From a phage, in NCBI GenBank assembly GCA_025812035.1, contig GCA_025812035.1_4719.1: a stretch of DNA of 64,000 nucleotides; one strand, 5' to 3'. Positions 2,158 through 47,300 of the stretch are shown here, in pieces. The notes under the pieces are model-generated. The model made no database searches and had not been told where the DNA came from. It worked only from the letters and a program-made list of their open reading frames with translations. The position numbers and the translations under genes were made by a program. Within the stretch, counting starts at the first letter, position 1, and each line of letters starts with the position of its first letter.

Positions 2158-3474
2158 TTAACCTTTGGTATAAGCGTTAACGAGAGTGTTGATGAATGAA
2201 GTCAATGCACGAAGATATTGATAAGCGAATTGGTTTTCAAGGCGGTTCTCTTTACCACAAAGTAGAATCGCGCGTTTAACGAGCTTAGGATAGATCTCGA
2301 CGTACGGTTGATAGCTTGTATCAAAATTCTGCTCGTTGAAGCGTTTCATGGTGATTTCCTGGATACGCTCCATGGTGCGAATTTTATTGCGAGAGAACAT
2401 CTCAGAGAAAGCACGTCCACGTTTTGTTACCATCAGCAAATCTTTCGCGAACGTAAGTTGTCGAACACTACGTAATTCGTCAGGTGTTGGCAGGACGTAT
2501 GTTTCTGGATCGCTATCCCATTCAACATCTTCAACGACGATATCCAAGTCAAGGTAGTGTTTAACCGCATCGATGATATTGTCTTTTGACGCATCGAATT
2601 CTTTCAGGAAGACCGCCCCGTTGATGTAACGGATGCGTTTCCCGGAAACCGTTGGAGTGATAACGTCAGCACCTTCCACGGAACCGCGATTTTCCAGTGT
2701 CGATTTGACAGCGTTTAAGAAAGACAGATAATCAACGGGAAGTTTTTCAACCTTATCTAAATGGAAGTCGATGATGTTTAATCCTAACCCATCAATAACC
2801 GAATAGCCGTCCGATTTAAGGAACATCTGATTGAAGGTTTCGATGTTGCTTTTCAGCGCGTCTACACCCCCAACTTTGTTACGGTTAGGGAAAAGCGTCC
2901 GCCACCCCGCTTTAAACGCAACCTCTTTATTTTCCTTGTATTTGCCTTTGGGCATCTGTTCGAGGGCCGCAACGGCTTTCTGAAAATTGCGTGTTTCGTC
3001 GTAAACAAGATGGGTAAGCTTCTCGAAGGCCGCTGCCAGGGTCAGGGCAATATCAACTATGATATCCCAGATCTTTTTCATGGCTTTTACAACGGTGTCC
3101 TTAAACCCTTCAACAACCAAAGCTTCTCCAACTTCAACACGATCGGTTGGAGCTAACAGTGTTTCAGAGGGTAGACCCAAGGCAATCGATGCGGATTCTT
3201 GAACGTTACGAACCAATGCAACGTCGCTGTAATTGGCCGATTCGATCGTCGGGGCAACATCAAAACTGATTTCCCGTAACGCCTCAACAGCAGGGAAAGC
3301 ACGATCAAGCGCATCCTCATGTTCGTCGATTGTCACCAAACGTAATTCAACGCCGTCCGCGTCGATGACTTCAGCTGTCGGTTCCACAGCAAGTGCTTCG
3401 GCAACGACGGGATCTTTTTCAAAAGCTTCAAGGCTAATATCGCCTTGTGTTTTAAATAGTGGTATACGTACCAT
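2158..3474 (-). CDS. Paralog family protein, ~438 aa (putative internal head/ejection protein)
   Basis: ORF track 2158..3498; start moved to Met-9 (MVRIPLFKTQ) which follows GGAGA and lies downstream of hairpin ~3523-3554. Module YSDVALVRNVQESASIALG ... LVVEGF. Confidence 0.6.
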   Translation of the reverse strand: MVRIPLFKTQGDISLEAFEKDPVVAEALAVEPTAEVIDADGVELRLVTIDEHEDALDRAFPAVEALREISFDVAPTIESANYSDVALVRNVQESASIALGLPSETLLAPTDRVEVGEALVVEGFKDTVVKAMKKIWDIIVDIALTLAAAFEKLTHLVYDETRNFQKAVAALEQMPKGKYKENKEVAFKAGWRTLFPNRNKVGGVDALKSNIETFNQMFLKSDGYSVIDGLGLNIIDFHLDKVEKLPVDYLSFLNAVKSTLENRGSVEGADVITPTVSGKRIRYINGAVFLKEFDASKDNIIDAVKHYLDLDIVVEDVEWDSDPETYVLPTPDELRSVRQLTFAKDLLMVTKRGRAFSEMFSRNKIRTMERIQEITMKRFNEQNFDTSYQPYVEIYPKLVKRAILLCGKENRLENQFAYQYLRALTSFINTLVNAYTKG

Positions 3475-3576: not shown

Positions 3577-4905
3577 TTATTGCTGTGCTGCGTCAGCCGG
3601 TTTCTCAGCCGCCTGGCCGCCGTACTCTTTCAGCATTTTAGCAGCGCCATCCAGTACAGCATTACCTGCCTGAACACCGTACTTCATCAGGCCGGTCTGC
3701 GGATTCACGTAGCAGGAACGTGCGTCTTTCAGAGCAGACAGTACAGCTTGAACACGCTGTTTTTCCTGAGCGGAAACTTCGCCTTTCTTAGACAGATCAG
3801 CTTCCATATCGTCGCCGAATTTAACAGCGTCTTTGAAGCCCTGGGATTTCTTACCGATGTTGCCTTTCAGCGCCAGCAGTTTGTCAGCCAGTACTTCAAC
3901 ACTGCTAACTGCGGCAGCCAGCTGATTCAGAGACAGTACAGTTGCTTCAACTTCTTTCGCTTCACCGGAACGTTCCCAGGTTACTTTACCGTCGTTGGTT
4001 TTGAAACCCCAACCCGCCGGGCCAGCAACGTCAGCAATCGCCGGTGCGTTCAGTTTATCTGCGTACTCGGTGTGGGACTTAGCAACAACGGTGTTGACGA
4101 ATTTATCAGCACGGTCGTCAGCAGCCTTCATTGCTTTCTCGAAGGTGTCAGCGATTTTAGTTGCACCGGTAACCAGATCGTCACCGCCGATATAACCTGA
4201 AACGCCGCTACCCAGTTTAACTTTGGCATTTTTAGCAGCGCCTTTACGTTTGGCGATCATTTCTTTCAGTTTAGCGGCACGTGCTTTCAGTTTGGTTGCG
4301 CCGTCGAAGATACGATCCATGAACTTCACGAAGGTTTCCCAGGAAGTTTTCAGGAAGTTCTTGATGGTTGCCCACAGTTTCTGCCACCATTTTTGTTCTT
4401 CCAGGAAGATCATGTTGGTTGCATCGTAACGGGAAGCGGAGCCACCGAAGCTTTCGAAGGACGGCATGGTTTCCGGCAGTTTGAAACCGATAGTACCACA
4501 CAGGCGTTTCAGGTTACGCATGTGTTCCTGAGCGGTTTGTGCAGACATACCACCGTCTTTCAGGTAGCTTTCGGTTGCAACAACGGTTTCCGTCAGTTCG
4601 TCCATGGCTTCGTCCATGGCTTCTGCGGTTTCGTCGTCTTTTGCAATTTCGATAACAACAGCATCAACCTGCTCGATATCGCCACGAACTTCGATAGCCA
4701 GTTCGGTTTCAGCTGCGGTATCTTCAGCGATTTCAGCGCGTTCGGTCAGTTCAGCTACAACGGTTTCATCATCTGCTGCTGCTGCGGCATCAGCTGCCGG
4801 TTCTGCTTCAACGGTTGCCGCTGCATCCGGATCGATCTCAGCAGCCAGTTGAACCAGCTGTGCGTTAGATGGATTTGCGACAAGACGATCAAAAATAGAA
4901 GGCAT
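3577..4905 (-). CDS. Paralog family protein, 442 aa, Ala/Asp/Glu-rich N-terminus (putative internal/scaffold-like protein)
   Basis: Long ORF with AAAGGA SD; strongly acidic Ala-rich N-terminal ~100 aa; central region similar to the neighbouring paralogs. Confidence 0.6.
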   Translation of the reverse strand: MPSIFDRLVANPSNAQLVQLAAEIDPDAAATVEAEPAADAAAAADDETVVAELTERAEIAEDTAAETELAIEVRGDIEQVDAVVIEIAKDDETAEAMDEAMDELTETVVATESYLKDGGMSAQTAQEHMRNLKRLCGTIGFKLPETMPSFESFGGSASRYDATNMIFLEEQKWWQKLWATIKNFLKTSWETFVKFMDRIFDGATKLKARAAKLKEMIAKRKGAAKNAKVKLGSGVSGYIGGDDLVTGATKIADTFEKAMKAADDRADKFVNTVVAKSHTEYADKLNAPAIADVAGPAGWGFKTNDGKVTWERSGEAKEVEATVLSLNQLAAAVSSVEVLADKLLALKGNIGKKSQGFKDAVKFGDDMEADLSKKGEVSAQEKQRVQAVLSALKDARSCYVNPQTGLMKYGVQAGNAVLDGAAKMLKEYGGQAAEKPADAAQQ

Positions 4906-4969
4906 AATTTGTTTCCTTTACAATAAATTGCACATTAGCTAATGCGGCTTAAGTGAACCGTTAGCTCAC

Positions 4970-5500
4970 TTAAAAGCCCTTAAAACCCGGTGCCATAGGT
5001 TGCCCAAACACCGCATTCAAAGTACATATGATGTCCTGGATGCCATTGTCCCAATGGAGCCAAGTACGCACCATCTCTTCGTCTGACAACGTGATATAAC
5101 TCATAAGTTTACCGCTGCTTTCCAGACGTTGGTGGGAACTTAATGATTGACGATCTGACCAGTTATCAATCAATTGTCCAGCAATCTGTACGTTCGTGTC
5201 TCGTCTACCCGTATGAATAAACCGTAGCGTATCACGGATAAACTCCAGACTGGTGAAGTTCAGATTTGGGTTATGGCTGTTCATTTCCACCCAGTCGGTA
5301 ATGGGGTACATCAAACGATAAAGGGTGGAAAGAACCTGACGTTCATATTTCCAGTCGTCGAGAGGAGTACCGTCAACCAGACGCTGATACAGACTAACAA
5401 CGTCACGATCGAAGTTCTCTTGGCGTTTTACACCGTTAACAGGAAAACCAAAGAACCCGGTACCGTATAACGTTAAAGGGACGTCACGAAGTGCACTCAT
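4970..5500 (-). CDS. Hypothetical protein, 176 aa
   Basis: ORF with ATGA stop/start overlap to the upstream gene (5497-5500), suggesting translational coupling. Confidence 0.55.
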   Translation of the reverse strand: MSALRDVPLTLYGTGFFGFPVNGVKRQENFDRDVVSLYQRLVDGTPLDDWKYERQVLSTLYRLMYPITDWVEMNSHNPNLNFTSLEFIRDTLRFIHTGRRDTNVQIAGQLIDNWSDRQSLSSHQRLESSGKLMSYITLSDEEMVRTWLHWDNGIQDIICTLNAVFGQPMAPGFKGF

Positions 5501-15531: not shown

Positions 15532-18336
15532 TTACGCTAATTTACCGAAACCGGCTTTCTGTAGTTTCTCGTTGATCAGTTTTGCTTCAGCGAAAACATA
15601 ATCACGATATGCGGTAACTAACCCATCCACCCGTGAACGCAAGGCTTCTTCGAAGCTATACCACGCAGCGATTTCACGAATCTGAGCGTTGATATAATCA
15701 ACGGTTGAGCGAAGCTCGGTTGCATTTTCTTGCGGGATGGCTTTCACCTGGCGAGCAACGTCATTTAAACGACGGAACTGTGTTTCGATTTCTTTAAACT
15801 TACTGTCAGCAAGTTTGCTGAATTCGTCACCGGAACGAGTAAATAACAGATAGCTGTTGCCATCAAGTGCGGTCGCTAACTGCTGAAGTACATTGGTGTC
15901 CGGATACACAGGAGTACCGCTTTGCAGTACTTTCTCACCGAATTCCGCGAAGTCCTTCGGCGGTAAGTGTGCAGACGTTGTCAATTCGTTGAAACGGAAA
16001 GTCAGCGAACTATCATACAACATCCGGTACGCTTCCATACCCTGTTTCATGGTACCAGCCAGGTTAGCCAGACGCGGAGCAATTTCACCCTCTTTAGCGC
16101 GCTTCTGGTCTTCTAACGCCCCTTCCAGTTCTTTACACTGGTCGTTCAGATACACGATACGATCGGGACGCAGACGACGCATCTCACGAAGAATAGTATC
16201 CAGCTTACCTTCCTGGAAATAACCTAGCGTTAAAGACGTACACGCTTGTTGAAGACGATCGAACACTGGTAAGGTTACCATCTCTTTACGGATACCATCA
16301 ACAATCGCAGAAACAGCCGAAAGTTTCTGTTCTGTGGTTAATGGAACGTCAGAGACCGACTTGCTGGGCGCACCAACAACGTTACGCATTGCGTCGGTAT
16401 CCTCGGTTTTATCAACCTCTTTACGAACATTCTCGTCGGGAACATAAACGTTCGCATTACGTTTTGCCTGTTTGATGGCATCGCTGGCCGCTTTTTCGGT
16501 GGCCGCTACGCTATCGGCACGTTTCTTCAAGAGTTCAATAATCCAAAGCAACAGACGACGAATCGCAGTGTAGGCTGTCGTGATGATGACGCCGATAACA
16601 GCCATCTTCATGATACCGAACGATTCCATGGTCGGCTCTAACGCCTGGTCAGGCATATACCGTTCACGCAGCTCCAGATAGATCTGCTCATCCGGTTTGC
16701 TGATCTCACCACGATGCGAAGTCCGATAGATGGCTTCGTCAATCTCAACAAGATCTTTACGTGCTTGACGGTCTGTTTCGGTCAAATAAGCGCAGCCGGA
16801 TACGTCGTCTTCAAAACTTTCGAACTTAAAGAAATCGACAACCATCTTGGCAAGCGCCTCTTTCTTAGCAGGATCGAGCGTCTTCGCATCTTCTTTTTGC
16901 TTATCCATTTTTTCCTTGAATTTCTCTTTGTAGTCATTCAAGGGTTTTACCGCTCTTGCCCTCAACGCGTTATAGATAGTTTTCCAACTTTCTTCGCGTT
17001 CTAAGATAAGGAAGTAGTTTTTGAGTTCGAAAGCACGGTAACGTGCAACGAGCTGTTCTACCTGAGCATGAGCGAGTTGTACATCCATCAACCAGCGGGA
17101 CAATGCTGAAACCAAACGACTATAAGCAAGCAGCGTTTGATATGTCAGCTTCATGTGTTTCTCGTAGAGTTCAATATCTCCGCCCCGGATATCAGCTGTC
17201 GGGTTCATCTCCTTAGTTGCTTTGAAGACTTGTTCAGCTTCATTCAACACTTGCTCGAACTTGACTTCATTGAACGCGTTGAATGGTTCGGCCAGTTCAT
17301 CCATCTGTTCGTGAAGCTCGCGAACCCAAGCTTCTTTGTGATTACGAATGACCGCATCAGCGTGGAGCACGGTTTGATGTTTCTGTACCCATTCTTCGAC
17401 GATATCTGCCGCTGCAACAACACCCATGTTGTCGGAAATCAACGGAATAACATTGGAGAGCATACCAGCACACGCTGGTGTTTTCCAATGATCGTTTAAC
17501 GCGTTACGGAACGCAATAATGTCCGTCATAGACGTAGTGATATCGAGGAACGTGTTACCGTTACGACTCATGCTTGCGATATTTGCAGCAAACGTCTTTT
17601 GCTGATCTACAACGAATGGAATCAATAGCATCAACCATTCAGCAACGCATTTTGCTTTGTCTTTCAGGTTTTTGTCGGCTATTTCTTTGAGATTGATTGC
17701 GCTACCATAACCCGCAAGTTCGTTATATACGTCGTTCAAGGTCATCTGCTTATCCAGCATTTCTCTGAAACGCGGATAATCTTCCCCTAACGCATCGATG
17801 ACATCTTGGATAACATCGTCAGTTGTGGCGATAAATTTCTTCGCGTCGACTTTAGATTTCCAGACGTGTCGTACCGCTTTCTTGATTCCTTCAAAGATAA
17901 ACGCCCAGATACGCTTGATGAGTTCCCAGACTTTCTTCGCACCATCGACAAACAGTTTAGAGACTTTGGCAACGAATCCTTCCTGCACCAACTCAACGCC
18001 GTTACGTGATGGAATTTCGGTGAAGAAAGCATCCGGCAGTTGTTTCGGGAACGCATCACCAAGACGCATACGCAATTCGGGTACATCGGCACGAGAAATA
18101 CCACGCGTCGTTAGCTGCTCGTGAAGACGAACGTTTTCTTCACCAGAGGCTACGAATTCGTTAACGTCAAATGAAACCAGTTCTTGATCTTCGGTGGTAA
18201 CGACGCTTGAACCATCACTGGTTTGGATGTCTTCGTCAGGGAATGCCATGAGCATACCGTGACGCATTTCAACCACCCCGTAATCGGTTGCTAAACCGAA
18301 TTCGTTGTGATCGGGGGTAATAACTGGGATACTCAT
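15532..18336 (-). CDS. Hypothetical giant protein, 934 aa with paralog module and a hydrophobic segment
   Basis: AAGGAGAG SD; N-terminal region ISRADVPELRMRLGDAF ... GVELVQEGFVAKVSKLF...KKVWELIKRIWAFIF matches the module of the ~430-aa paralogs; hydrophobic stretch MAVIGVIITTAYTAIRRLLLWII. Confidence 0.65.
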   Translation of the reverse strand: MSIPVITPDHNEFGLATDYGVVEMRHGMLMAFPDEDIQTSDGSSVVTTEDQELVSFDVNEFVASGEENVRLHEQLTTRGISRADVPELRMRLGDAFPKQLPDAFFTEIPSRNGVELVQEGFVAKVSKLFVDGAKKVWELIKRIWAFIFEGIKKAVRHVWKSKVDAKKFIATTDDVIQDVIDALGEDYPRFREMLDKQMTLNDVYNELAGYGSAINLKEIADKNLKDKAKCVAEWLMLLIPFVVDQQKTFAANIASMSRNGNTFLDITTSMTDIIAFRNALNDHWKTPACAGMLSNVIPLISDNMGVVAAADIVEEWVQKHQTVLHADAVIRNHKEAWVRELHEQMDELAEPFNAFNEVKFEQVLNEAEQVFKATKEMNPTADIRGGDIELYEKHMKLTYQTLLAYSRLVSALSRWLMDVQLAHAQVEQLVARYRAFELKNYFLILEREESWKTIYNALRARAVKPLNDYKEKFKEKMDKQKEDAKTLDPAKKEALAKMVVDFFKFESFEDDVSGCAYLTETDRQARKDLVEIDEAIYRTSHRGEISKPDEQIYLELRERYMPDQALEPTMESFGIMKMAVIGVIITTAYTAIRRLLLWIIELLKKRADSVAATEKAASDAIKQAKRNANVYVPDENVRKEVDKTEDTDAMRNVVGAPSKSVSDVPLTTEQKLSAVSAIVDGIRKEMVTLPVFDRLQQACTSLTLGYFQEGKLDTILREMRRLRPDRIVYLNDQCKELEGALEDQKRAKEGEIAPRLANLAGTMKQGMEAYRMLYDSSLTFRFNELTTSAHLPPKDFAEFGEKVLQSGTPVYPDTNVLQQLATALDGNSYLLFTRSGDEFSKLADSKFKEIETQFRRLNDVARQVKAIPQENATELRSTVDYINAQIREIAAWYSFEEALRSRVDGLVTAYRDYVFAEAKLINEKLQKAGFGKLA

Positions 18337-27083: not shown

Positions 27084-27112
27084 AAAAAAAAAATGGTGGG
27101 GCGAACCCCACC
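27084..27112 (-). terminator. Rho-independent terminator (hairpin plus U-tract)
   Basis: Minus-strand GGTGGGG-TTCG-CCCCACC followed by a 10-T run; 3' of the gene ending 27137. Confidence 0.75.
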
Positions 27113-27136: not shown

Positions 27137-27562
27137 TCAATTCAGTGATGCATACAACGCATAACGACTGTAGATCTCAACCGCTGGCCCGTTATGCGTT
27201 AACAGACCATCTCGGTTGTAATACTGGAAAAAGGAATAGCGTTTGTCGAAGTGATAAACGAAAGCAATGTCTTTACCGTTAAGACCCGTGATGCGTGGTC
27301 TGTTTTTATCTAGCAATGCTTTGACTTTTAACAGTGTTGCCGCACGTGCTTTAACATTAGGGATTAATCCATCACAGTCGATATAAACCGTGTAACCTGT
27401 TTCAGATGTTGCGACGGTTGTATTGCGATTGACGCGGAAGATTTTTGTTTTGTATGTATTATCTTCAAGGATTGGGTTTTGTTTTTCGTATTTTCGTTTA
27501 TGCAGAAATCCTACAACGGTAATATAGTTAGCGGTAATATGTCCGGTTATAGCCTGTAACAT
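27137..27562 (-). CDS. Hypothetical protein, 141 aa, preceded by the conserved ~95-bp leader element
   Basis: ATG with AAGAGGA SD inside the repeated leader (27563-27660). Confidence 0.55.
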   Translation of the reverse strand: MLQAITGHITANYITVVGFLHKRKYEKQNPILEDNTYKTKIFRVNRNTTVATSETGYTVYIDCDGLIPNVKARAATLLKVKALLDKNRPRITGLNGKDIAFVYHFDKRYSFFQYYNRDGLLTHNGPAVEIYSRYALYASLN

Positions 27563-28353: not shown

Positions 28354-28992
28354 TTATGCAAAGCGACGCATGTAACCTGCCAGGTAGTTACGTGTATCGA
28401 AGTAGGCAATTTCAGGAATTGCGATATTAAGGTCGATAGCACGGATTTCAACCTGGCGACGGCTTTCATCATAGATCGCATCCATCAGACGCAGTACTGT
28501 CAGGAAAGCCATGCGGGTATGGTAGTCCAGCGGCATGTTATCGATGCCACGATACAGGTAACGATTTGCGTTGAATGCCCCTTCGCTGTTATCTTTCCAG
28601 ATCTTCAGAATATCAGCAAAGGCGGTGCGGAAAACCTCAGGATTATCCACATCCAGTAACGCACGGAAAGCAGACATTAAAGATCGCTGATGACGGATCA
28701 AGGACTGCGGCGTTTGCGGCATGGTCGGACCCATTTCTTCCGCATATTTCTGGAACGGGGCAACCAGGGTTGCGGCGCGAGAAGCAACGATAGAAATAGC
28801 AGGCGATTCATTCACCGCTGGTTTCGCAGGCTTTTCTTCAACTGCGGTTTCCTTCTTCTCAACAACGACCGTTTTCGGTTGTGCTACAACGTTGTTGGTC
28901 GGAGCAGCAGCCGCACCATTTTCCACGGCGGTCTCTACTGCTGTAATCTTTTCGTCCATTTGTGCGGAACGTTGGTCTTTATTCTTGCTCAT
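28354..28992 (-). CDS. Hypothetical protein, 212 aa, low-complexity Ala/Val/Lys/Glu-rich N-terminus
   Basis: ORF; no recognisable motif. Confidence 0.55.
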   Translation of the reverse strand: MSKNKDQRSAQMDEKITAVETAVENGAAAAPTNNVVAQPKTVVVEKKETAVEEKPAKPAVNESPAISIVASRAATLVAPFQKYAEEMGPTMPQTPQSLIRHQRSLMSAFRALLDVDNPEVFRTAFADILKIWKDNSEGAFNANRYLYRGIDNMPLDYHTRMAFLTVLRLMDAIYDESRRQVEIRAIDLNIAIPEIAYFDTRNYLAGYMRRFA

Positions 28993-31301: not shown

Positions 31302-31775
31302 ATGCCAGTTTCATCCAAACCAAGAAAAAAATCAGTAGGAAAACCTAAAGCTCAGGAAACAACAGCAATTCGTTGGGACGAGTTACGCGAACCTATCGAA
31401 AACTGCGAATTGTTATTGAGCACCCTGGGTGCGGCTATTTACCAAGCAACGCAACCCTGCCGTTTACGATTAACCCAAAACAAGCGCGATGAGTTCGTTG
31501 CGTTATCAACAAGCACGAATAAAGATCTTACCGAACTTCAAACCGAATTGACGACGATCAAGAACTCCGTCACGCCGATGTACGGTAAAGAAGTTGATGA
31601 ACAAAGTATTCTGTTACAGTACAACTACGGGATGTCGTTAATGAACATCCTGGAACGCGCATCCGATATTCTACGTCCTGACGTCGCACGCCTGAGTCAA
31701 CTGCGTGTTGAAGGGATGGAGAACCAGATCCGATTCGCTAACAGTGTTAAATCTCAAGGAGCCACCGAAGCATGA
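31302..31775 (+). CDS. Hypothetical protein, 157 aa, basic N-terminus
   Basis: ATG after AGGAG; ATGA overlap with the next gene. Confidence 0.55.
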   Translation: MPVSSKPRKKSVGKPKAQETTAIRWDELREPIENCELLLSTLGAAIYQATQPCRLRLTQNKRDEFVALSTSTNKDLTELQTELTTIKNSVTPMYGKEVDEQSILLQYNYGMSLMNILERASDILRPDVARLSQLRVEGMENQIRFANSVKSQGATEA

Positions 31776-33418
31776 GCGAACAAGAAAAAGAAATTGTGAC
31801 GAGCCAGGAAGATAAGGTTGAGGTAACGGCTCAACCTGTTCATGAAGGTAATACTTCTACGCAGCAGGAAAGTAAAGAAGTTGCTGACGCTCCAGAAGCA
31901 ACCCATGAAGAAGAACCGTCACATCCGCCGCTGATCGATTTCTCAAAAGCAACGATACGTTTCCAGTGCGAAGATATTCGCCCTAAGAGCCCAAAGAAAA
32001 CGAAACGTCAACCGCTGCTATTACCGCTCTATTCTCCGCGTGTGCAGACGGAGTACTACGACGAGTATATTAACACAATTTTAGAGACTGTTCACGCTAT
32101 TGTCTCGAATCGTCAGAAACCGTCAGAAGAGCAATTAGAGCAGTTTAATAAAGCCGCAATACAAACAGCCGCTGAGCAGGAATACCGCCCGAATGGTCAA
32201 GCTCACGATCGAGCGCTGGAACGTAAGGGCAGTCAGTGGACCAACGTACCCGTAGACTCATCCGGCGTTGGTCGCGTTATTCCCGGCATTCCACAACCGA
32301 ACCATATTCCTGATGATGTTGAAGCACCACTGACAGGAACGGACGCGATCTATTTCGCTATCCGTAATACGAAATCAGGTGCACCTGCGGTAATGCCGTT
32401 ATGGCACAGCGGTATTAAGCTACAATTCAATCCACCGTCGAATGAACGTGTTGCGATTATGCATGAGCGTATTGCGCGCGATAAAATCCTGGGTGGGCGT
32501 GATAGTGCGGGGTTCCTGTTTTCGGCAACGTCGATTATCACCATGAAGCATGCGATCGAATTAGCATTAGAATGCTGTTACATGGCCAACGTGCCGAATC
32601 TGGACATTCAACGCCTGAAGGACATTATTCCGGTTACCGATGTTCCAGCGTTACTGTTAAACGTGTTGGTAACCATGTATCCGTACGGTTATCCTTACGT
32701 ACAAACCTGTTATCAGAATCCAGAAACATGCGATTATCGTGTTGAAGATATCGTAAGCTTTGCGAAGCTTTATCAAGTTGACAACAGCGCAATTACCAAA
32801 CGTATGCGACAGATCATGACCGAAGGTCCGGTCATGACAGATGAACTTTTGCGTGAGTATGCGAACGAGTTAGGTGAAACCAACTCCCGTACGCTGGATC
32901 TGTCCGACAACGGTTCTGTTATCATCGAACTTGAAGTACCGAAGATCTCACGACAAATCGCCATGGGTGAACGCTGGTTAAGCGATACACTGGAAGATCT
33001 ACGTGATATTCTGTCACGTCCGTCAATGACCGAAGAAGAGCGCGATCGTGTTATTCGTGAACGTCAGTTCTATAGCTGGATGCGCCAGTATGACGCGTGG
33101 ATCAAATCGATGCATGTGTCGGTAAACGGTACCATGCGTCGTGTAAGTGATGCGGATACGGCAACGGTATTAGCACAGCTTTCACGTGACAGCGACCTTC
33201 GTGAGCGCTATATTGACGGACTGATGCAATTCATCGGTGATTCAACCATTGCGCTTGCGGCAATGCCTGCCTGGAAATGTCCGAAATGCAATGCTGATAC
33301 CGCCGATAATCTACGCGACCAGAAATACTACGACCTGATTGCTTTGGATGTACCCCAGCTTTTTTTTACCCTAAACTCCGTCCAATCTCTGCGGGAGGGG
33401 ATGGACGCGGTATTCTAA
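31772..33418 (+). CDS. Hypothetical protein, 548 aa
   Basis: Long ORF; C-terminal CPKC pair; ends just after an 8-T run (~33360-33367) beyond which the -1 frame stays open into the next ORF. Confidence 0.6.
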   Translation: MSEQEKEIVTSQEDKVEVTAQPVHEGNTSTQQESKEVADAPEATHEEEPSHPPLIDFSKATIRFQCEDIRPKSPKKTKRQPLLLPLYSPRVQTEYYDEYINTILETVHAIVSNRQKPSEEQLEQFNKAAIQTAAEQEYRPNGQAHDRALERKGSQWTNVPVDSSGVGRVIPGIPQPNHIPDDVEAPLTGTDAIYFAIRNTKSGAPAVMPLWHSGIKLQFNPPSNERVAIMHERIARDKILGGRDSAGFLFSATSIITMKHAIELALECCYMANVPNLDIQRLKDIIPVTDVPALLLNVLVTMYPYGYPYVQTCYQNPETCDYRVEDIVSFAKLYQVDNSAITKRMRQIMTEGPVMTDELLREYANELGETNSRTLDLSDNGSVIIELEVPKISRQIAMGERWLSDTLEDLRDILSRPSMTEEERDRVIRERQFYSWMRQYDAWIKSMHVSVNGTMRRVSDADTATVLAQLSRDSDLRERYIDGLMQFIGDSTIALAAMPAWKCPKCNADTADNLRDQKYYDLIALDVPQLFFTLNSVQSLREGMDAVF

Positions 33419-33510
33419 TCGATCCGCGATATGGGTTACATGGCGGGCAACTTGTTCGTGACGATGAAAAAATCTGGCAGCTACTGTTAGCGCGTAAAGG
33501 CGACGGCGGC

Positions 33511-33840
33511 ATGAAGCTGAACATCGAAATGGGTATTGCGTACGATACCATGTTCGGTTTGTATGACCGCGTTAACGACTGGACACCGTTGAAATGGGTT
33601 GCCCAGCATCCTGCTGAAGACCCATGGGACAGATTAGGGATTAAACCCTTAATCGAGGATTACGTACGATTCGGTATTAAAGAGTTCATGTCGCTCGACG
33701 CATTTTTAAAAGCACCGTATCCTTATGCGCAAACGGTACTCAAGATCGCACAAGACGAGCTGCGGAAACGCAGTGCTGTATTGGACGACGATGAGGACAA
33801 GTTACGACGAGAAGAAGAACGTTTACGAAACGGAAGATAA
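33511..33840 (+). CDS. Hypothetical protein, 109 aa (possibly the downstream part of a frameshifted product)
   Basis: ORF; its frame is open upstream to ~33310, overlapping the 3' end of the 548-aa gene. Confidence 0.45.
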   Translation: MKLNIEMGIAYDTMFGLYDRVNDWTPLKWVAQHPAEDPWDRLGIKPLIEDYVRFGIKEFMSLDAFLKAPYPYAQTVLKIAQDELRKRSAVLDDDEDKLRREEERLRNGR

Positions 33841-33841
33841 A

Positions 33842-34351
33842 ATGGCGAGATTTACCAGTTTGATTGGGTTGGACATTTGGGAGACACCTGCTGACGTTAG
33901 GGTTATTCCCGTTAACACTGTCGGTGTGATGGGACGTGGTCTTGCGAAGCAGGCAGCCGAGCGTGTGCCCGGTCTTCTTGAAGCGTACCGTAAGCACTGC
34001 TCTGATGGATTTAAGGTGGGCGAAGTCGTATCGTATCAGCACGGCGAGAACGATCAGCTCACCTACGTACTGTTTCCATCGAAATCGGATTGGCGTGAAA
34101 AAACACGACGCGAGTATATCGTTAGCGGCTTACTGGCGTTAAAGGCGTGGTTATTGGAGCTTCAGTTCGAAAGAGATGGCTTCTCATACCGGAGTCCGGC
34201 TGAACCGTTGATCGTAGCGATTCCTCCTGTTGGTTCTGGTTGCGGTAATATCGGTTACGGGCAATCCGAAACAATCCAGCCTCAATGGGTACGCGCACAA
34301 ATCAAACAGTATCTTGCCACCGTACCGAACGTTCATTTCTACTTGTTCTAA
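33842..34351 (+). CDS. Macro-domain-like protein (ADP-ribose binding/processing fold), ~169 aa
   Basis: ORF track 33725..34351; start at MARFTSL after GGAAG and the upstream stop. VIPVNTVGVMGRGLAKQAAERVPG and IAIPPVGSGCGNIGYG resemble the two conserved macro-domain loops. Confidence 0.5.
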   Translation: MARFTSLIGLDIWETPADVRVIPVNTVGVMGRGLAKQAAERVPGLLEAYRKHCSDGFKVGEVVSYQHGENDQLTYVLFPSKSDWREKTRREYIVSGLLALKAWLLELQFERDGFSYRSPAEPLIVAIPPVGSGCGNIGYGQSETIQPQWVRAQIKQYLATVPNVHFYLF

Positions 34352-35391: not shown

Positions 35392-38004
35392 TTATGCGTC
35401 CGGCGTAAAATCAAAAGGAACGTCCGTACGAATGATATCATAGCGTTTTCCTAAGAAATAGAACTCCTCGGGGACCTGACCGGGAACAATACTATCGCCG
35501 ATGAACTGCGGATATGCCCAGATGTACTGAGTGAGTCCTTCGAACATATCCAGGTTATTTGCGTGGTTACCCATGATACGTTTCCAAAGTTCGCGTTTAT
35601 ACGGTGTTTTAACATCGAACCCATAAAGCGGTGCAAGATCCACACCAGGCACAAATCCCAGGTAGTAGTGGATCTGACTGACCGGGAAACCAAGCGTATC
35701 TCGCGGAATGGTGATCGCTTGCTCAGCCTTGGTGACATGCGTCTCAATAATCCAGTCGTAGCACTCCGAATAGAACCGATCGAATTTCTCTGGATTATAC
35801 CACGCTTTGGGAAGATTCAATTTCTCCGTAAAATCGTTCGACATGATCGTCGGCAAGAAAGGAAGTATGCCCGTCTTTATTTGCGTGTATTTTGATTTTA
35901 CGCGATTTACCAGATTCCAACAAGCATAACCGAGCTGATCGTTACAGAACTCAACGTACAGATCGTAATCCCCTCCCGATAATGGATTATTAATATCACC
36001 GATATCAGCTGCGTATTTGTTGGGGTATCGTGTATTAAATGCCAGTTTGGTTTGGTAATCGTAAATGCACGGTTTATTGTTCTTCGTGTTAATCCACCAC
36101 CATGGCTCACCTACCTGCACGCAAATGTCCTGGACATGAGGATAGATAATATCAGCAAATGCTGTTAACACATCCCCTAACCACGCCATCGCATGTTGGT
36201 TACATGGAGACAACAACCAAGACGGTGGCGTATATCCGGTTGCTGCTATGTTTCCTTCCCAATCCTGCTGCGCCCACTCGAATGGACACGCTGTACTCAT
36301 CAATTCGTAACTTAAACTGATGGTGACAGAGAAATGGTGTTTTGCGGCGTATGCAGCAAAGGCTTCATGCCATGCAATACAGGGTGGATTTAGTACATCT
36401 GTGGTGTTCACCAGTAACTTACCCGCACTTGGTGTCCAGACAGTATCGTAGAAATGCGACATTCCGACATAGTGCACTAATTCATCCTGATAACCCGCAT
36501 ACACCAGGTTTTCAAATACACGCTCTGGCGTGATGTTGTAATGGTCATCATAAGCGGTTATTGCACGAAGCTCATGCGGTGTGCAACGGTGACGATTAAC
36601 CGTCATTTCCTGGTACACCCCATCGATAGGAAGAATCTCGATGGTTAAACCAAGATCGATCGGCGTTTCCAGATAGGTCGTTTCTGTAGCACCTTCTTTA
36701 TAATGTCGAGAACTCATGCTGAACATCAACGATGTTACCGATTCAAGTTCGATGGGTTCGTCAGCATAGAACCCCGCCATCGCATCGTTGAAATCGATCG
36801 TCACGGTCGCACTCGTACCGTCTTTAGAAACGTCGGTTGCATATCGGGTTAATGAGATATACTGGCGACTATCGTCTTTGTGAACGACGGTTAAAACCGG
36901 TGGGTTTTCAGTATCAGCAAAATTACGCTGGTCGCCAGTAAACGTGATCTTCGCTTTAAAGATCAAACCGAATAACGACGTCATGGGGGCATACGCAACG
37001 CAACCATGATCCAGTGTATCCGTTGTTCGCCATTCTATCCCGACCAACCCGTTAGCGGTATGACATCGCATATACGCGTTAAGTACCATGTCTTCACTGA
37101 CAACCGCGAAGTTCTCTGTTGACTGACCGTTGATAATCCAATACATCGGTTGCCAAAGATTACGAGTACCTTTTGCATAGCGGTAGGTTGGCGCGCCTTT
37201 TGGGTTGCCGTTATTAAGATGGAATACAGCAGTACCTTGGTAGTGATCGTTCGTATTAATCGGAACGCTGTAAGCGTCACCGATATCCGTACGTTCGACC
37301 TTAGCGACTGTTGCGTTTTCAAACAGTCCACGTAGCGTAGGAAGACCAATATCTTCAGGCGCGTTTTCTCGACGAATCGCATCCGCGATGCGATGGGCTA
37401 AGGCGGGGTAAATGACTTCACCTTGTTGCAGGTTCGCAAGCCCTGCGAAACGATCGGGGTCGATGCCAGCAATCAATAACTCGACATCACCCTTCGTTCT
37501 ATCGTCGCGGAGGTATTTCAGTCCAGTAAGATCGAGATGTCGAATTAACGACAACAGATCGTACTTACGGTTTTCAACAGTCAGTTCGAGATCACCTGCC
37601 CAAACCAAACTTCCCTCATCCGCCGCTACTCTAACGGATTGTCGGCCTGTGGTAGATGTTGTTGTCGTTTTATTTAATTGCTCTTGTAGGAAGTCGGTTG
37701 CGAGGTCAAAGGCAACGCCGTAACGGTCAGCGACGGCTTGCATGATTTCACGTAACTGGGTATCTTCTTCAATGATAATCTTGACAGGTATTCCCAAGAA
37801 CGCTTTAGTGAGGTCCCGCTTAACCATCGAGACGAATACGGATTTGTAATACCGGCTTCCATCTTTCCCTTTAAAAAGAATGGAAGTTGTTTCGGGTGAC
37901 GATAGAACACGTGCAAATTCAACATCGTCGAATGTAAGAGAAAGTCCGTTTTTCTCGTTGGTTAATCTTAATATTTCATTTTGCGCGGTTTCATGTAACT
38001 TCAT
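35392..38004 (-). CDS. Putative tail fibre / receptor-binding protein, 870 aa
   Basis: N-terminal ~100 aa (KRDLTKAFLGIPVKIIIEED...YGVAFDLATDFL) shared with the 44028 and 44712 proteins; unique long C-terminus; sits in the fibre cluster. Confidence 0.55.
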   Translation of the reverse strand: MKLHETAQNEILRLTNEKNGLSLTFDDVEFARVLSSPETTSILFKGKDGSRYYKSVFVSMVKRDLTKAFLGIPVKIIIEEDTQLREIMQAVADRYGVAFDLATDFLQEQLNKTTTTSTTGRQSVRVAADEGSLVWAGDLELTVENRKYDLLSLIRHLDLTGLKYLRDDRTKGDVELLIAGIDPDRFAGLANLQQGEVIYPALAHRIADAIRRENAPEDIGLPTLRGLFENATVAKVERTDIGDAYSVPINTNDHYQGTAVFHLNNGNPKGAPTYRYAKGTRNLWQPMYWIINGQSTENFAVVSEDMVLNAYMRCHTANGLVGIEWRTTDTLDHGCVAYAPMTSLFGLIFKAKITFTGDQRNFADTENPPVLTVVHKDDSRQYISLTRYATDVSKDGTSATVTIDFNDAMAGFYADEPIELESVTSLMFSMSSRHYKEGATETTYLETPIDLGLTIEILPIDGVYQEMTVNRHRCTPHELRAITAYDDHYNITPERVFENLVYAGYQDELVHYVGMSHFYDTVWTPSAGKLLVNTTDVLNPPCIAWHEAFAAYAAKHHFSVTISLSYELMSTACPFEWAQQDWEGNIAATGYTPPSWLLSPCNQHAMAWLGDVLTAFADIIYPHVQDICVQVGEPWWWINTKNNKPCIYDYQTKLAFNTRYPNKYAADIGDINNPLSGGDYDLYVEFCNDQLGYACWNLVNRVKSKYTQIKTGILPFLPTIMSNDFTEKLNLPKAWYNPEKFDRFYSECYDWIIETHVTKAEQAITIPRDTLGFPVSQIHYYLGFVPGVDLAPLYGFDVKTPYKRELWKRIMGNHANNLDMFEGLTQYIWAYPQFIGDSIVPGQVPEEFYFLGKRYDIIRTDVPFDFTPDA

Positions 38005-46466: not shown

Positions 46467-46620
46467 AAGCACTCCAATCATGGGGCGGTAACCGCACCCA
46501 ACGGTTAAATTGTCGATTATGGTCGTTGCTGATAAGACGACCATAACCAACGATGTTTAATATGTAGTATATTGATATCATGACGTTATGGGGATCTAAG
46601 TCATACCATGGAGACGGCGA

Positions 46621-46671
46621 AAAAAAAAAGAAAATAGGAAAACGGTGTTCATCCTTTTAGGGATGAACACC
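46621..46671 (-). terminator. Rho-independent terminator (hairpin plus U-tract)
   Basis: Minus-strand GGTGTTCATCC-loop-GGATGAACACC followed by T-rich run (plus-strand A-run 46621-46640); 3' of the gene ending 46692. Confidence 0.7.
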
Positions 46672-46691: not shown

Positions 46692-47300
46692 TTAACGAGG
46701 AATCAGATCGTTAAGCTCTTCTTCTTCGATAACAAAGAAGCTGTTCTGGTTGTCTAAATCTGATAACAGGACTTGCCCAACAGTGAAGCAAGTTCCACCC
46801 TTCTTAGGCATCCATACCGGCTCATTCGTTACCTTATCAGGATACCATTTGAAACGGTTGGTATCTAAGAAGAACGCAGCTTTGTTCTCCTTGTCGGTAG
46901 AACGATAGCTAACCAGCGCTGGCCACTCAATCCAGGTATTTGTACATGGTACATGTAAAGGATACCATGCGCGCCAGCGCTTACCAGGACGTTTCGGATC
47001 CTCCCAATATTCAGCGGTTAGCACGGCGTTCTTATATTGTTTCTGTACCAGCATCTCAAGAACAGATTCATTACCGATTGGTAAACGCACCAACTCTCTT
47101 TCGACGTGTGATGAATCTAAAGTCACTTCAGCCATATAAAGAGATTTAGGTAATCCAGCCTGTTTTGTGGGTGGTATTACGACACCGGTAACCAACGGTC
47201 TGCTCGGTTTACGTTTCTGTTCTTTCCGATGCGTGTAAAGGAATAACCCTACAGCTACGACAACAAGTATAATAAACAACACTATCTTAATCCAGCTCAT
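46692..47300 (-). CDS. Membrane-anchored protein, 202 aa
   Basis: N-terminal hydrophobic helix IKIVLFIILVVVAVGLFLY then basic stretch; hairpin plus T-run terminator downstream. Confidence 0.55.
   Translation of the reverse strand: MSWIKIVLFIILVVVAVGLFLYTHRKEQKRKPSRPLVTGVVIPPTKQAGLPKSLYMAEVTLDSSHVERELVRLPIGNESVLEMLVQKQYKNAVLTAEYWEDPKRPGKRWRAWYPLHVPCTNTWIEWPALVSYRSTDKENKAAFFLDTNRFKWYPDKVTNEPVWMPKKGGTCFTVGQVLLSDLDNQNSFFVIEEEELNDLIPR

Follow-up and report, generated by a model that had tools for sequence, protein, structure and literature searches.

Does the run of eight T residues near the end of a 548-codon phage gene mark a place where ribosomes change frame, joining the gene to its downstream neighbour? 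The question is raised by a 64,000-nucleotide (nt) stretch of DNA (hereafter the window), contig GCA_025812035.1_4719.1 of the phage assembly GCA_025812035.1, in which open reading frame 1 (ORF1; 548 amino acids, aa) ends shortly after the run (T8) and a 109-aa ORF follows. An earlier reading of the same DNA (the original prediction) had proposed that a −1 slip on the U-run fuses the two products, and had named a homopolymer sequencing error and transcriptional slippage as alternatives. Based on a comparison of related loci, we put the probability that programmed −1 ribosomal frameshifting at U_UUU_UUU yields a 689-aa fusion at about 0.8.

The region shows 89.5% nucleotide identity to Escherichia phage Goslar, a nucleus-forming jumbo phage, over gp080-gp083. 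ORF1 corresponds to Goslar gp081 and phiKZ gp077 and matches phrog_4585 at 1e-68; the 109-aa part corresponds to Goslar gp082 and phiKZ gp076.4 and is held in a separate family, phrog_12109. Both ORFs sit between the gp078 (virion RNA polymerase beta, vRNAP-beta)-gp079-gp080 block and a macro-domain gene. Orthology, together with synteny with the vRNAP-beta/gp079/gp078/gp077 block, assigns ORF1 to the chimallivirus core gene cg18. Prichard et al. 2023 equate Goslar gp081, phiKZ gp077 and RAY gp267 with cg18 in their Table S3, where it is a 'hypothetical protein' and is not flagged as unique to chimallin-encoding phages (PMC10299810).

Reading frames at the T8 run

The features on which the argument rests are the following, all on the plus strand; P-site and A-site denote the peptidyl and aminoacyl sites of the ribosome.

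31772-33418, +, ORF1 in the 0 frame, 548 aa (frame translation)
33360-33367, +, T8 run in the context CAGC-TTTTTTTT-ACC
33361-33367, +, slippery heptamer U_UUU_UUU, with P-site UUU at 33362-33364 and A-site UUU at 33365-33367
33367-33840, +, −1-frame extension of 157 codons plus stop, which would be read ...QLFF/YPKLRPISAGG... after the slip
33368-33418, +, 0-frame tail past the slip site, 16 codons TLNSVQSLREGMDAVF plus TAA, C-terminus of the predicted short product
33377-33405, +, candidate stimulatory hairpin of 7 bp + 4 bp (base pairs), −14.5 kcal/mol, beginning 9 nt past the heptamer
33419-33510, +, stretch annotated as intergenic, without ATG, GTG or TTG, with the substitution pattern of −1-frame coding sequence
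33511-33840, +, 109-aa ORF as called alone (Goslar gp082 / phiKZ gp076.4; phrog_12109), the C-terminal two-thirds of the extension

ORF1 passes through the run in the codons CTT TTT TTT ACC, and the last seven T's of T8 (33361-33367) form a perfect in-frame X_XXY_YYZ heptamer. Translation of three frames places the 109-aa ORF in the −1 frame relative to ORF1. This frame is stop-free from 33310 and is thereby open for 17 codons upstream of the heptamer and 157 downstream; 67 of its codons precede ATG 33511, and this leader contains no ATG, GTG or TTG. The original prediction had placed the run at 33360-33367, the ORF1 stop at 33418 and the open −1 frame, with its 67 codons, at 33310-33840, and we obtained the same values. 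The window has 101 ORFs with 100 codons or more and a median leader of 5 codons; among them, the 67 codons before the 109-aa ORF are the longest start-less leader. A single T8 is in itself not improbable, as 1.7 such runs are expected from base composition; this one is the window's sole homopolymer of at least 8 bases within an ORF. Together, T8 and the start-less −1 leader are a feature beyond chance.

The second-longest start-less leader in the window, of 64 codons, belongs to the ORF at 4201-4926 (+). Rich in Phe and Gly, its translation resembles an antisense shadow of a gene on the minus strand more than it does a further recoding candidate.

Under ribosomal frameshifting, host ribosomes translating the cg18 messenger RNA (mRNA) would reach CUU-UUU-UUU with phenylalanine transfer RNA (tRNA-Phe) in the P and A sites. 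A fraction of them would slip back by one nucleotide on U_UUU_UUU, then read UAC-CCU-AAA in the −1 frame and pass through 33419-33510 and the 109-aa ORF to the stop at 33838-33840. Such a tandem −1 slip would give the sequence ...DVPQLFF/YPKLRPISAGG... and a product of 689 aa (532 + 157). Two proteins with 532 N-terminal residues in common would result, a short one of 548 aa ending in the 16-aa 0-frame tail and a long one of 689 aa that would carry a flexible linker and a helical domain of ~120 aa. The predicted junction peptide of the fusion is YYDLIALDVPQLFFYPK, with the phiKZ counterpart ...IPIDMLSTFFYFGGLEVK, and the predicted peptide specific to the 0-frame short form is YYDLIALDVPQLFFTLNSVQSLR. 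The site, its register, the two reading frames and their conservation are shown by the sequences, whereas slippage on the ribosome, how efficient it is and the roles of the two isoforms are points that we infer.

Conservation of the proposed slip site and of the extension

We compared 45 loci (41 plus 4 further phages), of which 37 are non-redundant. They include phiKZ, Noxifer, Eowyn, Bacillus phage AgentSmith, Moabite, Vibrio pir03, Erwinia pEa_SNUABM_54 and Burkholderia FLC9, 32 loci from IMG/VR, and metagenomic relatives at 50-55% identity. The relative phages span Klebsiella, Serratia, Erwinia, Vibrio, Burkholderia and Bacillus, many at ~20-30% protein identity. In a tblastn search with the hypothetical fusion, 158 phage records were matched; many alignments ended exactly at residue 532, the junction, and several resumed in another frame.

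All 45 loci share the same architecture, with the same site, register, shift direction and −1 ORF, down to ~20% protein identity, which supports the proposal that a −1 slip on the U-run fuses the two products. At each locus the open −1 frame covers 15 codons or more ahead of the ORF1 stop and 123-170 codons beyond it, and the +1 frame closes nearby. An in-frame N_UUU_UUN motif lies 8 to ~40 codons ahead of the ORF1 stop and falls on one column of the protein alignment, in the conserved FF(T/M/L)L. Across the loci, the extension measures 150-179 aa, and the 0-frame tail past the site is kept in length and character. In Goslar, the identical T8 is embedded in 58 invariant nucleotides. Comparing homologous loci had been suggested by the original prediction, and the comparison returned a conserved slip site and no single fused ORF. 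That two separate ORFs in related genomes would speak against fusion, as had been supposed, turns the argument round: when the slip site is conserved as well, two such ORFs are what marks programmed frameshifting.

Serratia phage Moabite (L044, ~2900-3048) has its motif, GTT TTT TTA, ~40 codons before the ORF1 stop, compared to 8-16 codons elsewhere. The 0-frame tail of its short isoform is much longer than at other loci.

These data bear directly on a sequencing or assembly error, or a recent inactivating indel, according to which the true gene would be one ORF of 689 codons. Homopolymers are error-prone, and a 1-nt homopolymer indel separates the metagenome contigs L006 and L007 elsewhere in the locus. 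Yet the 45 loci were sequenced independently, and in each of them a −1 shift is required at one and the same column regardless of run length, platform and host; run lengths of 5, 6, 7 and 8 all call for this shift. The conserved 0-frame tail and the absence of a fused ORF among 28 database homologs (see below) point the same way. The error explanation is thus effectively refuted, and we consider it hardly conceivable.

The contigs L006 and L007 are 49 kb long and otherwise identical, with AAA versus AA at position 5038. The difference lies 10 nt before the stop of the extension and alters its last residues and the next gene call; an assembly error at the homopolymer and genuine variation are the two possible causes.

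The nature of the slip motif was further resolved by counting it over the 37 non-redundant lineages.

U_UUU_UUU, 18 of 37
U_UUU_UUC, 8 of 37
G_UUU_UUU, 5 of 37
G_UUU_UUC, 3 of 37
U_UUU_UUA, 2 of 37
U_UUU_UUG, 1 of 37, seen in Erwinia phage pEa_SNUABM_54

A canonical heptamer is therefore present in 29 lineages, and the other 8 have G_UUU_UUY, which keeps the U_UUY tetramer. The P-site codon is UUU in all 37 lineages, compared to a share of only ~40% for TTT among the Phe codons elsewhere in these genes; under each gene's own Phe usage, the joint probability of an all-UUU P site is ~1e-16 (33 lineages scored). Where the A site encodes Leu, only UUA or UUG is used and CUN codons do not occur. 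The T-runs themselves vary in length, with T5 in three lineages, T6 in nine, T7 in twelve and T8 in thirteen. Because the P site is always UUU and the A-site Leu never CUN, what is conserved is the in-frame UUU-UUN register and neither the amino acids nor the length of the homopolymer.

A second line of evidence comes from the extension, for which 33 non-redundant fusions align across the junction and along the whole length. Conserved motifs are GH(V/I)...FG(L), hP.E(D/N) and (L/M)S..(E/D)(F/Y)(L/F).LP. Substitutions were compared between the window and Goslar and between the window and the Salmonella-associated contig L010. Within ORF1 (33062-33361), 30 of 33 changes relative to Goslar and 33 of 41 relative to L010 fall on third codon positions. 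Between 33419 and 33510, third positions of the −1 frame take 7 of 11 and 13 of 18 changes, respectively. The doubly coding overlap (33368-33415, 48 nt) is depleted of changes, with 2 in each comparison. By this substitution pattern, the annotated intergenic stretch 33419-33510 evolves as −1-frame coding sequence.

This pattern is difficult to reconcile with two independent genes, in which the 109-aa ORF would begin at ATG 33511 and the open frame upstream of it would be untranslated. Every public annotation that we examined calls two genes, ATG 33511 is preceded by a weak purine-rich stretch, and internal initiation could add to frameshifting. Against independent genes, homology and the third-position pattern reach upstream of this ATG, back to the slip site, and no start codon is conserved: the first ATG, GTG or TTG in the extension frame occurs 8-101 codons past the site at positions that are not conserved, and the 67-codon leader is the longest of its kind in the window. 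In phiKZ, AgentSmith and the loci L034-L037, the first start codon comes only after more than half of the conserved extension. Two separately initiated genes appear very unlikely to us.

Database searches gave a similar picture. A full scan of 1.84 billion representative proteins returned 15 homologs of the extension, all of them stand-alone ORFs of 92-158 aa with arbitrary N-termini. A word-indexed search of 5.8 billion clusters returned 13 homologs of ORF1 with 522-570 aa; that such searches yielded only 13 is probably due to the low-complexity N-terminus, which dominated candidate selection. No single fused ORF was present among the 45 loci or these 28 database homologs (13 + 15). Members of ~686 aa do occur in BFVD and phrog_8054, and since ORF1 aligns to profile positions 152-677 of 693, they appear to be longer at the N-terminus and not at the C-terminus. 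A split that persists over such evolutionary depth is typical of programmed frameshifts for which both products are needed.

Stimulators, run length and known frameshift systems

Several findings weigh against programmed frameshifting on the ribosome and are collected here. The G at heptamer position 1 in 8 of 37 lineages makes P-site re-pairing imperfect, and in Escherichia coli U_UUU_UUU is far less shifty than A_AAA_AAG (PMC5009743). Downstream folding is family-wide no better than that of shuffled sequences (mean z −0.5), and anchored hairpins are not enriched compared to control positions in the same genes (ranks 0.03 to 1.0). Pairing resembling a Shine-Dalgarno (SD) interaction in the 28 nt upstream is weak, with a mean of −4.1 kcal/mol. 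Known RNA frameshift elements gave no Rfam match at E up to 10. The length of the T-run, T8 in this clade and T7-T8 in 25 of 37 lineages, belongs on the same side and is taken up below.

Individual loci do have candidate elements. In the window, a second, small hairpin that spans the stop codon comes after the one at 33377-33405. The latter is not supported by the statistics and can be made out in the Goslar-like clade only; L008 has a related stem, L006 and L009 have weaker stems. An anti-SD duplex of −6 kcal/mol or lower was found in 6 of 33 lineages, the value for the window being −4.1. A downstream hairpin or pseudoknot common to all lineages and an SD-like stimulator upstream were both considered and rejected. 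A stimulator is thus unproven; the heptamer may suffice by itself, or the site may depend on an undetected element.

The strength of the heptamer can be gauged from E. coli, where slip tetramers rank A_AAG >> U_UUC > U_UUU and H_HHU_UUY heptamers belong to the efficient class (PMC4066793), in agreement with the motif conserved at cg18. By analogy with U_UUU_UUY heptamers in this host, the frameshift product is probably a minority. As U_UUU_UUU is weaker than A_AAA_AAG, the long form is probably a minor product and possibly rare.

Run length is also where transcriptional slippage has to be considered. An RNA polymerase of the phage or the host would add a U, and the U9 mRNAs would encode the fusion, yielding the same protein. 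This is favoured by the long runs just mentioned and by the avoidance of U7 runs in all three frames of enterobacterial genes, for which slippage is part of the reason (PMC4066793). On the other hand, 12 of 37 lineages have only T5 or T6, and it is the codon register that is invariant and not the run length, although polymerase slippage needs no register. Known bacterial cases of transcriptional slippage use runs of about 8-9 or more, a length that is not reached family-wide and at which the T8 of the window is borderline. Polymerase slippage could therefore contribute at T8 in the Goslar-like clade, but fails for the T5/T6 lineages, and we regard it as an unlikely source of the fusion.

Ribosomal frameshifting at cg18 would resemble lambda G/GT and P2 E/E+E' in several respects. 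In these systems, as proposed for cg18, ribosomes shift by −1 on a heptamer that lies a few codons short of the upstream ORF's stop; the minority product keeps the N-terminus and gains ~150 aa as an additional C-terminal domain. They, too, are kept across very divergent phages and were never resolved to one ORF. P2 also uses a U-run heptamer, T_TTT_TTG, the one present in Erwinia phage pEa_SNUABM_54. A conserved −1 frameshift in tail genes of double-stranded DNA phages was described by Xu, Hendrix & Duda 2004 (cited in PMC5009743). By analogy, cg18 would follow the same logic, in which a protein and a version of it with a longer C-terminus are made in fixed proportion. Such a set proportion of the two forms is a hallmark of assembly chaperones, and the hypotheses on the role of cg18 are narrowed accordingly.

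The likeness has its limits. ORF1 has ~550 aa, compared to ~100-150 aa for the upstream ORF in G/GT-type systems, and unlike G/GT the cg18 locus does not lie between tail-tube and tape-measure genes. The candidate tape-measure/lysozyme gene of phiKZ and Goslar is cg55, in a different block from cg18. Similarity to tail assembly chaperones was not detected either, as 'Tail assembly chaperone' matches in BFVD had E > 1 and a probability of at most 0.1, and Pfam and PHROG searches returned nothing of this kind.

Transposases of the IS3/IS1 families of insertion sequence (IS) elements and dnaX use the same class of slippery motif as cg18, and U_UUU_UUC is used by some IS elements (PMC4066793). In IS elements the outcome is an ORF-A/ORF-AB fusion, as would be the case in cg18. 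IS and dnaX sites normally come with a recognisable stimulator (a hairpin or pseudoknot downstream, or an SD-like sequence upstream), in contrast to cg18, where none is consistent. The dnaX frameshift shortens the product, whereas that of cg18 would extend it.

Our literature search found no report of a frameshift in phiKZ gp77, Goslar gp081 or cg18, and all GenBank records that we examined annotate two genes for 'hypothetical proteins'. The mechanism is well known, but this instance, family-wide and in a core gene of heavily studied phages, appears to be unreported. cg18 is one of about 70 core genes of nucleus-forming jumbo phages and is annotated as two unrelated hypothetical proteins. If true, recoding would correct the annotation in more than 150 phage genomes, judging from the 158 phage records matched, and would merge two orphan families into one gene with two isoforms. 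It would also provide an example, conserved over great evolutionary depth, of a −1 frameshift at a U-run without an evident stimulator. In nucleus-forming phages, mRNA is made inside the phage nucleus and translated by host ribosomes in the cytoplasm, and the two processes are physically separated. Recoding also offers a testable handle through slip-site mutants, fixed-frame mutants and the junction peptide.

Protein models, possible function and neighbouring genes

ORF1 and the extension were modelled as separate chains. The AlphaFold2 model of ORF1 has a mean predicted local distance difference test score (pLDDT) of 69.7, with residues 1-97 disordered and an alpha/beta core predicted with confidence over residues ~200-540. 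Four cysteines of ORF1 (C313, C320, C503 and C506) are invariant in 7 diverse members and at least 90% conserved in 18, a pattern suggestive of a zinc site. The extension is modelled with residues 1-32 disordered, followed by a helical domain of ~120 aa with a long, confident C-terminal helix at residues 118-156.

Sequence and profile searches for function in Pfam, PHROGs and PDB returned only 'unknown function', and ORF1 had no sequence or fold relative in PDB. A Foldseek search of BFVD with the ORF1 model recovered family members at E 1e-25 to 1e-17. The next matches were proteins of 226-285 aa annotated as 'Baseplate protein' or 'Baseplate hub assembly protein, bacteriophage T4-like' (E 6e-5 to 2e-3), which matched the ORF1 core with a target-normalised template modelling (TM) score of ~0.5. 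The homolog in Bacillus phage AgentSmith is annotated as 'putative baseplate hub assembly protein'.

In T4, gp26 and gp51 are hub-assembly chaperones (PMC3004832). They match PF12322 (T4_baseplate) at 1e-64 and 4e-52, respectively, and are on this account paralogs. Their genes in T4 (L043), at 15803-16429 (−) and 16480-17229 (+), are divergently transcribed neighbours. T4 gene 26 gives two products, gp26 and the internally initiated gp26'; cg18 would also give two, but via frameshifting. Like T4 gp51, gp081 is absent from the text of the Goslar virion paper. Proteins of the gp077 family are twice as long as T4 gp26 and gp51, and no match to PF12322 was found at E up to 1 in 18 members of the cg18 family. 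We also tried to establish homology by hhalign of the family profile with T4 gp51 and gp26, which aligned 15-20 residues at 3% and 24% probability, respectively; these are short motif matches, too weak to claim homology.

The models may thus hint at a weak fold-level link between ORF1 and the hub-assembly chaperones. We treat it as a lead and not as a finding because there is no sequence link, the locus lies outside the tail module, and the homolog in phage Churi was detected in early-infection proteomics. One could speculate that the cg18 frameshift is the jumbo-phage counterpart of G/GT, with gp077/gp081 an enlarged relative of gp26/gp51 and the extension a partner-binding 'T' domain. We find this rather doubtful. 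If true, the 'universal' chaperone frameshift would also hold for contractile tails of the phiKZ type, in which we know of none recognised so far, and two orphan core proteins of the Chimalliviridae would gain a function.

Directly downstream, the macro-domain gene (33842-34351, +) matches Pfam PF01661 at E 1.5e-5. Its ATG at 33842 lies 2 nt past the stop of the extension and is accompanied by the purine stretch GGAAGA. The Goslar record begins the orthologous gp083 50 nt within gp082, a start that is probably over-extended.

Upstream, the 212-aa ORF at 28354-28992 (−) is syntenic with Goslar gp077, a capsid decorator protein (2026 preprint, 10.64898/2026.04.21.720040). Goslar gp077 and phiKZ gp77 are different genes that are easily confused. 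We considered whether 'gp77' in the Goslar structure preprint denotes cg18 and rejected this, as the name refers there to the capsid decorator gene. The 870-aa ORF at 35392-38004 (−) is the ortholog of Goslar gp086, which is annotated as 'weakly similar to capsid protein'. The copy of this gene in contig L010 has Pfam matches to NCTSP_N, TIM-barrel_NCTSP and DUF7941, and the major capsid protein of Goslar is listed as gp041 (Prichard et al., PMC10299810). The capsid label on the gp086 ortholog is probably wrong.

An intrinsic terminator was looked for at the T8 run and not found. On the minus strand, two A10 runs elsewhere in the window (27084-27093 and 46620-46629) form T10 or a T-rich tail behind a G+C-rich hairpin. 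They resemble intrinsic terminators and lie past the ends of the minus-strand ORFs 27137-27562 and 46692-47300.

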